A stretch of DNA of 15,856 bases from the NCBI GenBank assembly GCA_000002435.2, contig AACB03000028.1; one strand, 5' to 3'. Under the pieces are notes generated by a model. The model had not been told where the DNA came from. It made no database searches and saw only the letters and a list, made by a program, of their open reading frames with translations. Positions 1,998-2,004 of this stretch are shown here, one piece after another. Each line of letters opens with the position of its first letter. Position 1 is the first letter of the stretch. The stretch is from Giardia intestinalis. Taxonomy: Eukaryota. Made by a program: the position numbers and the translations under genes.

Positions 1998-2004
1998 AGT
2001 GAAT
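1998..2004 (+). promoter_or_regulatory. polyadenylation signal AGTGAAT for U1
   Basis: It lies 7 nt downstream of the TGA at 1988..1990. Confidence 0.7.

Follow-up and report, generated by a model that had tools for sequence, protein, structure and literature searches.

Why gene copies that cannot be translated should each keep a poly(A) signal just past the stop codon is the question raised by this locus. The window, that is, the whole 15,856-nt stretch of Giardia intestinalis DNA analysed here, contains seven complete cassettes of the VSP (variant-specific surface protein) type (~1.9 kb each for five of them, ~3.1 kb for the other two) and the tail of an eighth, arranged head to tail and all on the plus strand. 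When both strands were searched, the heptamer AGTGAAT was found eight times, on the plus strand only, at positions 76, 1998, 3903, 5790, 8913, 10837, 13954, and 15836, exactly as often as the first-pass annotation had reported. Shuffled sequences predict 1.84 copies by chance, and none of 200 shuffles reached eight; the eight copies are not independent events, because they occupy the same position in a repeated unit.

Each heptamer is preceded by TTCCTCTGCTGGTGGTTCGTGTGCAGGGGGAAGGCGTGACTTGGGT, which codes for the end of the transmembrane (TM) segment, CRGKA, and the stop. The first-pass annotation had placed the motif 7 nt after each CRGKA stop. This holds for seven of the eight gaps (CTTGGGT), but the last copy, at 15836, lacks the C after the TGA and its gap is therefore 6 nt (TTGGGT). 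Moreover, the CRGKA-TGA codons are intact at the nucleotide level in only 6/8 copies; at 76 and 8913 the G5 run has lost one G, so that the TM frame reads through the TGA. Similarly, the TM and CRGKA tail modules, described as intact even in broken cassettes, were found in all eight tails, but those at 76 and 8913 are frameshifted and the tail of cassette 7 is out of frame with its body. With these small corrections, the heptamer observation is real and was confirmed in part. No further AGTRAAY was found on either strand of the window. Bare AGTRAA hexamers (AGTAAA or AGTGAA) occur at seven sense-strand sites within cassette bodies (3623, 4799, 5510, 7993, 10557, 13032, and 15558); they lack the extended context described below, and their number is close to that predicted from base composition. 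A depletion of AGTRAA in the cassette bodies was ruled out (15 on the plus strand versus ~13 expected). The absence of AGTRAA from the minus strand, considered as a sign of long antisense transcripts, is not significant, as a first-order Markov model predicts 2.2 occurrences and gives zero in 9.6% of simulations.

The Giardia poly(A) signal (PAS) is AGURAA, and AGUGAA is the commonest PAS hexamer upstream of the poly(A) sites mapped from poly(A) tags (PMC3610916). VSP genes carry a specific extended PAS, ACUUAGRU-AGURAAYRY, at a median of 6 nt past the stop (Rodríguez-Walker et al. 2022, bioRxiv 10.1101/2022.03.07.483299; also PMC1762436), and 323 of its 327 genome-wide matches are VSPs or pseudo-VSPs (pVSPs) (bioRxiv 10.1101/2022.03.07.483299). 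The window motif, tgACTTGGGTAGTGAATGC, has the stop-codon A as its first base and agrees with this consensus at 16/17 positions; the form ACTTGGGTAGTGAATGC is present in seven of the eight copies, the eighth being one base short. The motif resembles the published signal in its start at the last stop-codon base, in its AGURAAY core, and in its presence on pVSPs. It differs by a G in place of A at position 5 in all window copies and by the lack of the C at position 2 in one copy. That AGTGAAT is a Giardia poly(A) signal, as first annotated, agrees with both the mapped hexamers and the consensus match, and by sequence the heptamers would be the core of the VSP-specific extended PAS; the functional identity of this motif, like the description of such arrays, comes from the literature. 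A TGA followed by 7 nt and AGTAAAC was also found in stand-alone VSPs of isolate DH and of another assembly, and in members of an assemblage-B array. Because the extended PAS begins at the stop codon, the perfect placement noted in the first reading is built into one contiguous conserved block, and the position of the heptamer is the norm of the VSP family rather than a separate coincidence.

The 3′ end of the upstream cassette (cassette 0) occupies positions 1–82 and comprises a TM segment, a CRGKA tail put out of frame by the loss of one G, the TGA, and the heptamer at 76–82, with the extended PAS ACTTGGGTAGTGAATGC at 68–84. It is followed by a 35-nt spacer (83–117) of GTGATAG-like units, with stops in all three frames, which ends in an in-frame TAG directly before a W codon. 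Cassette 1 (118–2004) has a pVSP body that begins with WSEICTKAEGGLCTAC and undergoes at least five frame changes; its TM-CRGKA-TGA end and its extended PAS (1990–2006, heptamer 1998–2004) are intact. After a 37-nt spacer (2005–2041), cassette 2 (2042–3909; extended PAS 3895–3911, heptamer 3903–3909) is open over 617 codons (2042–3892) up to CRGKA, without an ATG or a signal peptide, the first in-frame Met lying at 2612. A second 37-nt spacer (3910–3946) leads to cassette 3 (3947–5796; extended PAS 5782–5798, heptamer 5790–5796), open over 611 codons (3947–5779), also without a start or a signal peptide, and a third (5797–5833) to cassette 4, of 3.1 kb (5834–8919). Here, the frame changes near 6450–6510, at 8160 (one G lost from a G-run), and at 8892 (G5 to G4 in the CRGKA codons), and the TGA before the extended PAS (8905–8921, heptamer 8913–8919) does not lie in the frame of the TM segment.

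The spacer that follows cassette 4 is the longest (8920–8968, 49 nt) and contains extra GTGATAG-like units, with a TRF array at 8929–8971. Cassette 5 (8969–10843; extended PAS 10829–10845, heptamer 10837–10843) has one frame change near 9230–9300, and over its 3′ 1,220 nt it matches cassette 2 with 100% identity. A 38-nt spacer (10844–10881) separates it from cassette 6, of 3.1 kb (10882–13960; extended PAS 13946–13962, heptamer 13954–13960), which is open over 1,002 codons (10938–13943), again without a start or a signal peptide. The start of cassette 6 (10882–10940) differs from that of the other cassettes by a 1-nt insertion and a 2-nt deletion, which shift the ~19 codons that follow the W into another frame than the 1,002-codon stretch; the 5′ edge is thus damaged even in the longest of the open cassettes. 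Finally, after a 46-nt spacer (13961–14006), cassette 7 (14007–15842) shows ~30 single-base deletions relative to cassette 2 in its 5′ ~400 nt and a further frameshift directly before the TM segment; its tail is intact, and the shortened extended PAS lies at 15829–15844 (heptamer 15836–15842).

The distance from the TGA to the first codon of the next unit is 49–63 nt, including the 35–49-nt spacer after the heptamer. The spacers consist of a conserved GCTGTACAATG followed by two to five degenerate GTGATAG units, and their lengths differ by whole units. As a consequence of the 7-nt period of these units, TGA or TAG stops occur in all three frames, and the last codon of each spacer is a TAG in frame with the following cassette. 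The spacers of the assemblage-B array mentioned above are longer (~100–130 nt) and unrelated to those of the window. The spacers showed no apparent homology to the part of the VSP coding sequence that lies upstream of the WSEIC point.

Translated, the cassettes give CXXC proteins rich in cysteine, with a TM segment and CRGKA at the C-terminus, and their scores for Pfam PF03302 (Giardia variant-specific surface protein) are 125–280 bits (cut-off 31.4). Among the 248 VSP homologues obtained by database searching, the top match was XP_001705784.1, annotated as 'VSP' in G. lamblia ATCC 50803 (WB), which is 99.5% identical to the open reading frames of cassettes 2 and 5 from their first internal Met onwards. 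This WB protein of 2007 differs from cassettes 2 and 5 (2612–3892 and 9546–10826) at two residues, ACENPLGT versus ACSNSLGT, and at both it carries the variant found in cassette 3; either a further copy is located elsewhere or copies were collapsed in the older assembly. The genes vsp110 and vsp111 (open reading frames of 499 and 427 aa, listed by Adam et al. as 'linear array, no Inr', chromosome 5) fit the consecutive entries XP_001705783 and XP_001705784 by length only. As the cassette order and the lengths of the open reading frames match no array of the 2007 table exactly, the window may be a re-assembled or unplaced version of such an array.

Each cassette starts directly after the in-frame TAG with WSEICTKAEGGLCTAC (WSEICTKA...), which aligns to internal residues ~103–120 of complete VSPs such as P0003, an intact stand-alone VSP of WB (708 aa). 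From an alignment that begins only at residue ~103 it follows that ~100 codons of the N-terminus, ATG and signal peptide included, are missing. Indeed, no in-frame ATG start, signal peptide, or initiator (Inr) was found in any cassette, including the three that are mostly open (2042–3892, 3947–5779, and 10938–13943); the first in-frame Met lies 100–233 codons downstream of the start of the open frame and has no hydrophobic leader behind it. The VSP initiator PyAATGTT (Inr/Kozak-like) was found on neither strand of the window, and strongly AT-rich, promoter-like tracts were not found, no 30-nt stretch being above 77% A+T. We also considered a 5′ exon supplied by trans- or cis-splicing and rejected it: the Giardia branch/acceptor motif CTRACACRCAG, with up to two mismatches, occurs at chance level (32 versus 25.7 expected), with no plus-strand occurrence in a spacer. 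No Rfam match to a known RNA family was obtained in the window.

The coding state of the array is therefore worse than the first-pass annotation had stated, in that even the open cassettes lack a 5′ end. Of the features of a functional VSP, we found the CXXC/PF03302 content, the extended PAS, and the TM-CRGKA-stop end; what is missing is an Inr and a reading frame that opens with an ATG and a signal peptide. The window also has the hallmarks of a pVSP linear array, with at least two head-to-tail units, short intergenic regions, and Inr-less or startless members with a conserved 3′ end. Under the definitions used by Xu et al. (2020) and by Rodríguez-Walker et al. (2022), all units are pVSPs. 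More than half of the WB vsp genes lie in linear arrays with intergenic regions of 60 bp on average, whose downstream members lack an Inr and were proposed to be unexpressed recombination cassettes (Adam et al. 2010, PMC2996952); at the head of such an array there is often a complete VSP that has an upstream region and an Inr (Adam 2010; Xu 2020). The window shares with the WB VSP and pVSP arrays (PMC2996952; PMC7000408) the head-to-tail units, the very short intergenic regions, the conserved 3′ ends, the downstream members without an Inr, proper start codon, or signal peptide, and the near-identical pairs inside one array. Its best database match is itself a WB array member, and we see no essential difference.

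Part of the contrast between broken reading frames and intact signals may lie in the assembly. Cassette 7 (14060–14440) differs from cassette 2 (2100–2500) by 29–32 single-base deletions and at most eight substitutions in ~400 nt, and this cluster of deletions directly adjoins 935 nt of 100% identity. Over 1.56 kb, cassette 4 departs from cassette 6 only in having one G fewer in each of the G-runs at 8160 and 8892; the latter loss, and its twin in the tail of cassette 0 (~57–62), break the CRGKA codons. Such an indel spectrum is typical of errors in a long-read consensus and looks like the product of an unpolished one rather than of natural decay. Homopolymer frameshifts have been reported for the WB PacBio assembly, which also includes 30 small contigs made from leftover reads (PMC7000408). 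Polishing with mixed reads would be expected to place the deletions of cassette 7 at sites that differ between cassettes 2 and 5, where a weak enrichment was found (14/29 versus 103/333). It is a serious possibility, at somewhat less than even chances in our judgement, that many of the lesions that make these cassettes untranslatable are long-read consensus errors in a repeat that short reads cannot polish, and that the contrast between 'pseudogene' and 'intact signal' is overstated. Against this explanation, G-run slippage also occurs in vivo, and the lack of an ATG, a signal peptide, and an Inr is structural and common to all cassettes. Because the missing 5′ ends are structural and universal, the cassettes are pseudogenes whatever the status of the indels.

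The conservation of the heptamer has to be compared with that of its surroundings. When the eight copies were aligned from −75 to +21 around the heptamer, 87/97 columns were invariant, and 55 of the 91 seven-column windows were as invariant as the heptamer itself. Mean pairwise identity across the six internal junctions forms a plateau of 0.95–0.97 from −125 to +25, drops to 0.60 over the spacer owing to the unit indels, returns to 0.95 at +50 to +75, the start of the next cassette, and is 0.5–0.75 elsewhere. Within the array, the 18 nt past the heptamer (GCTGTACAATGTGTGATA) equal it in conservation; they are unrelated to the sequence that follows the PAS of stand-alone VSPs. The cassettes moreover share tracts of 100% identity, of 1,220 nt (cassettes 2 and 5), 935 nt (cassettes 2, 5, and 7), and 821 and 737 nt (cassettes 4 and 6), and the combination of 5′ and 3′ segment types changes from cassette to cassette by reassortment. 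A 726-nt tract that crosses a junction, PAS and spacer included, is present twice with zero differences (3578–4303 and 5465–6190); the breakpoints of exchange or duplication must therefore lie inside the cassette bodies and not at the unit borders.

The cassette bodies have diverged as coding sequence, and the junction module has been homogenised. The identical tracts demonstrate duplication with unequal crossing-over or gene conversion, which explains the retained signals with no need for selection on 3′-end processing. Conservation within a repeat that evolves in concert cannot be read as selection. The first-pass annotation had taken the retention of the signal in untranslatable cassettes as informative; this claim was not supported, since the heptamer is no better kept than its ~150-nt surroundings, the cassettes share 100% tracts, and the association of the PAS with pVSPs had already been published.

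We consider it probable that AGTGAAT is the core of the extended PAS, retained passively in a tandemly duplicated and homogenised pVSP array of WB. The array would have arisen by tandem duplication of one unit, consisting of a VSP without its first ~100 codons, down to the TM-CRGKA-TGA end and the extended PAS, and then a 35–49-nt GTGATAG-like spacer. Unequal crossing-over or gene conversion would have kept the array homogeneous around the junctions, the PAS being carried along passively within a ~150-nt homogenised 3′ module, and use of the signals would depend on a chance entry of RNA polymerase II into a cassette. Against passive retention, the combination of saturated bodies with a near-identical 3′ module, its non-coding part included, could also come from selection at the nucleotide level. 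Candidate constraints could be the PAS itself and miRNA target sites; sites for VSP-targeting miRNAs were reported at −100 to −75, at −62 to −32, and across the stop (PMC3937270). These positions fall inside the same 3′ module, so that even a nucleotide-level constraint would not be specific to polyadenylation. Selection and conversion are not separable from one array, and passive retention is sufficient.

The bodies themselves carry the mark of protein-level constraint. Between the open parts of cassettes 2, 3, 4, and 6, dN/dS is 0.27–0.31 with dS of 0.9–1.5 (synonymous sites being saturated), the cysteines are kept at 32/32 and 71/74 positions between startless cassettes, and the indels in the divergent regions net to multiples of three. 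From the low dN/dS, the kept cysteines, and the in-phase indels, it follows that the variation arose under constraint on the protein. In addition, cassette 3 (3947–5779) is 95–100% identical to P0003 over residues ~230–410 and only 30–57% identical in the N-terminal part. Judged by length alone, P0003 may correspond to vsp72 (GL50803_111732), which belongs to clade I and has an Inr. The mosaic of cassette 3 and P0003, the coding-type divergence, and the mosaics among cassettes fit the hypothesis of a reservoir with segmental conversion, and we infer that the array most likely acts as a recombination reservoir of antigen-coding segments. The conserved 3′ module could then serve as a homology anchor, with the PAS travelling along.

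A stronger form of this proposal is that selection holds the 3′ module, PAS included, as the downstream anchor for segmental conversion between the array and expressed VSPs, the PAS mattering only after transfer. We regard this as possible though unlikely. The ~180-residue mosaic with P0003, the mosaic nature of the cassettes with respect to each other, and the dN/dS of ~0.3 with cysteines kept in startless cassettes all speak for it, as does the reservoir hypothesis published for the WB arrays (PMC2996952) and for G. muris (PMC7641422). However, homogenisation within the array needs no selection, the P0003 mosaic could stem from how the cassette arose instead of from continuing exchange, and conversion into an expressed VSP has no experimental demonstration in Giardia. 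The telomere-adjacent pVSP arrays of Giardia muris likewise consist of tandem VSPs without signal peptides, with evidence of recombination or segmental conversion with intact VSPs; they are reported to be essentially untranscribed (PMC7641422).

A parallel outside Giardia is known from trypanosomes, and it concerns the organisation of the array rather than its proteins. The silent VSG gene and pseudogene arrays of Trypanosoma brucei (reviewed in PMC8957917) are large and hold promoterless, often defective antigen genes with conserved 3′ sequences, which are donors for segmental gene conversion. The likeness to the window is one of organisation only, the proteins being unrelated and conversion into an expression site being undemonstrated in Giardia.

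In the explanation offered by the first-pass annotation, the signals are kept because the cassettes give sterile, unit-length, polyadenylated VSP-homologous RNAs that feed an RdRP/Dicer/Argonaute restriction to one VSP. The PAS looks competent by sequence in all eight copies, and RNAi control fed by many VSP transcripts has been proposed, exclusive VSP expression requiring RNAi components (Prucca et al. 2008, reviewed in PMC8957917). VSP-like non-coding Girep RNAs, transcribed from both strands, were earlier proposed as sources of siRNA (PMC2817412). The Gireps share with the present proposal the idea of non-coding VSP-homologous transcripts as RNAi substrates; they are 222–228-nt tandem repeats with RT-PCR evidence for both strands, whereas the window units are 1.9–3.1-kb cassettes known here from their sequence (Chen et al. 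2009, PMC2817412). RNA-seq signal was reported for all 178 WB 'vsps', including 108 without an Inr (PMC3610916), and antisense reads exceed sense reads for most VSPs; reads in these near-identical repeats cannot be assigned with confidence. Detection of the Inr-less 'vsps' was at a low level, with a median of 19 versus 42 FPKM (PMC3610916), and many of those with signal are array members later reclassified as pVSPs. Some transcription of such cassettes in WB, and some use of their signals, is therefore likely.

Several observations nevertheless weigh against this function, and we consider it improbable. The conservation is not specific to the signal, the window contains no Inr or strongly AT-rich tract from which transcription could start, and a built-in source of dsRNA is missing, as no inverted repeats of at least 25 nt that could form hairpins were found in the window. 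An efficient PAS in each unit would also end read-through from an upstream promoter after one cassette, and the pVSP arrays of G. muris are essentially untranscribed (PMC7641422). The link to RNAi is speculation published earlier, and it would require that the cassettes be transcribed, a point on which a sequence by itself is silent. Even more doubtful is the elaboration in which arrays transcribed at a low level are cut at each extended PAS into untranslatable polyadenylated RNAs whose 3′ module makes them RdRP/Dicer templates or small-RNA decoys (the targets of the decoys might be VSP-targeting small RNAs with sites at −100 to −75, at −62 to −32, and across the stop), helping to set the threshold for silencing all but one VSP mRNA.

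The finding of a PAS in broken copies is expected, and it was already known from the description of pVSP arrays (Adam 2010; Xu 2020) and of the extended PAS in pVSPs (Rodríguez-Walker 2022); the idea that VSP-like non-coding RNAs serve as substrates of RNAi is likewise in print (Prucca 2008; Chen 2009). The window is a textbook pVSP linear array, and its sequence adds no evidence for a function in RNAi. It carries the caution that some frameshifts in arrays of this kind may be assembly errors. The ~200 pVSPs make up a sizeable share of the genome without an assigned role. The wider question is how Giardia expresses only one of its ~136 VSPs, and if it were true that array cassettes yield polyadenylated non-coding RNAs that enter the RNAi/miRNA pathway, this would give the pVSPs a function.
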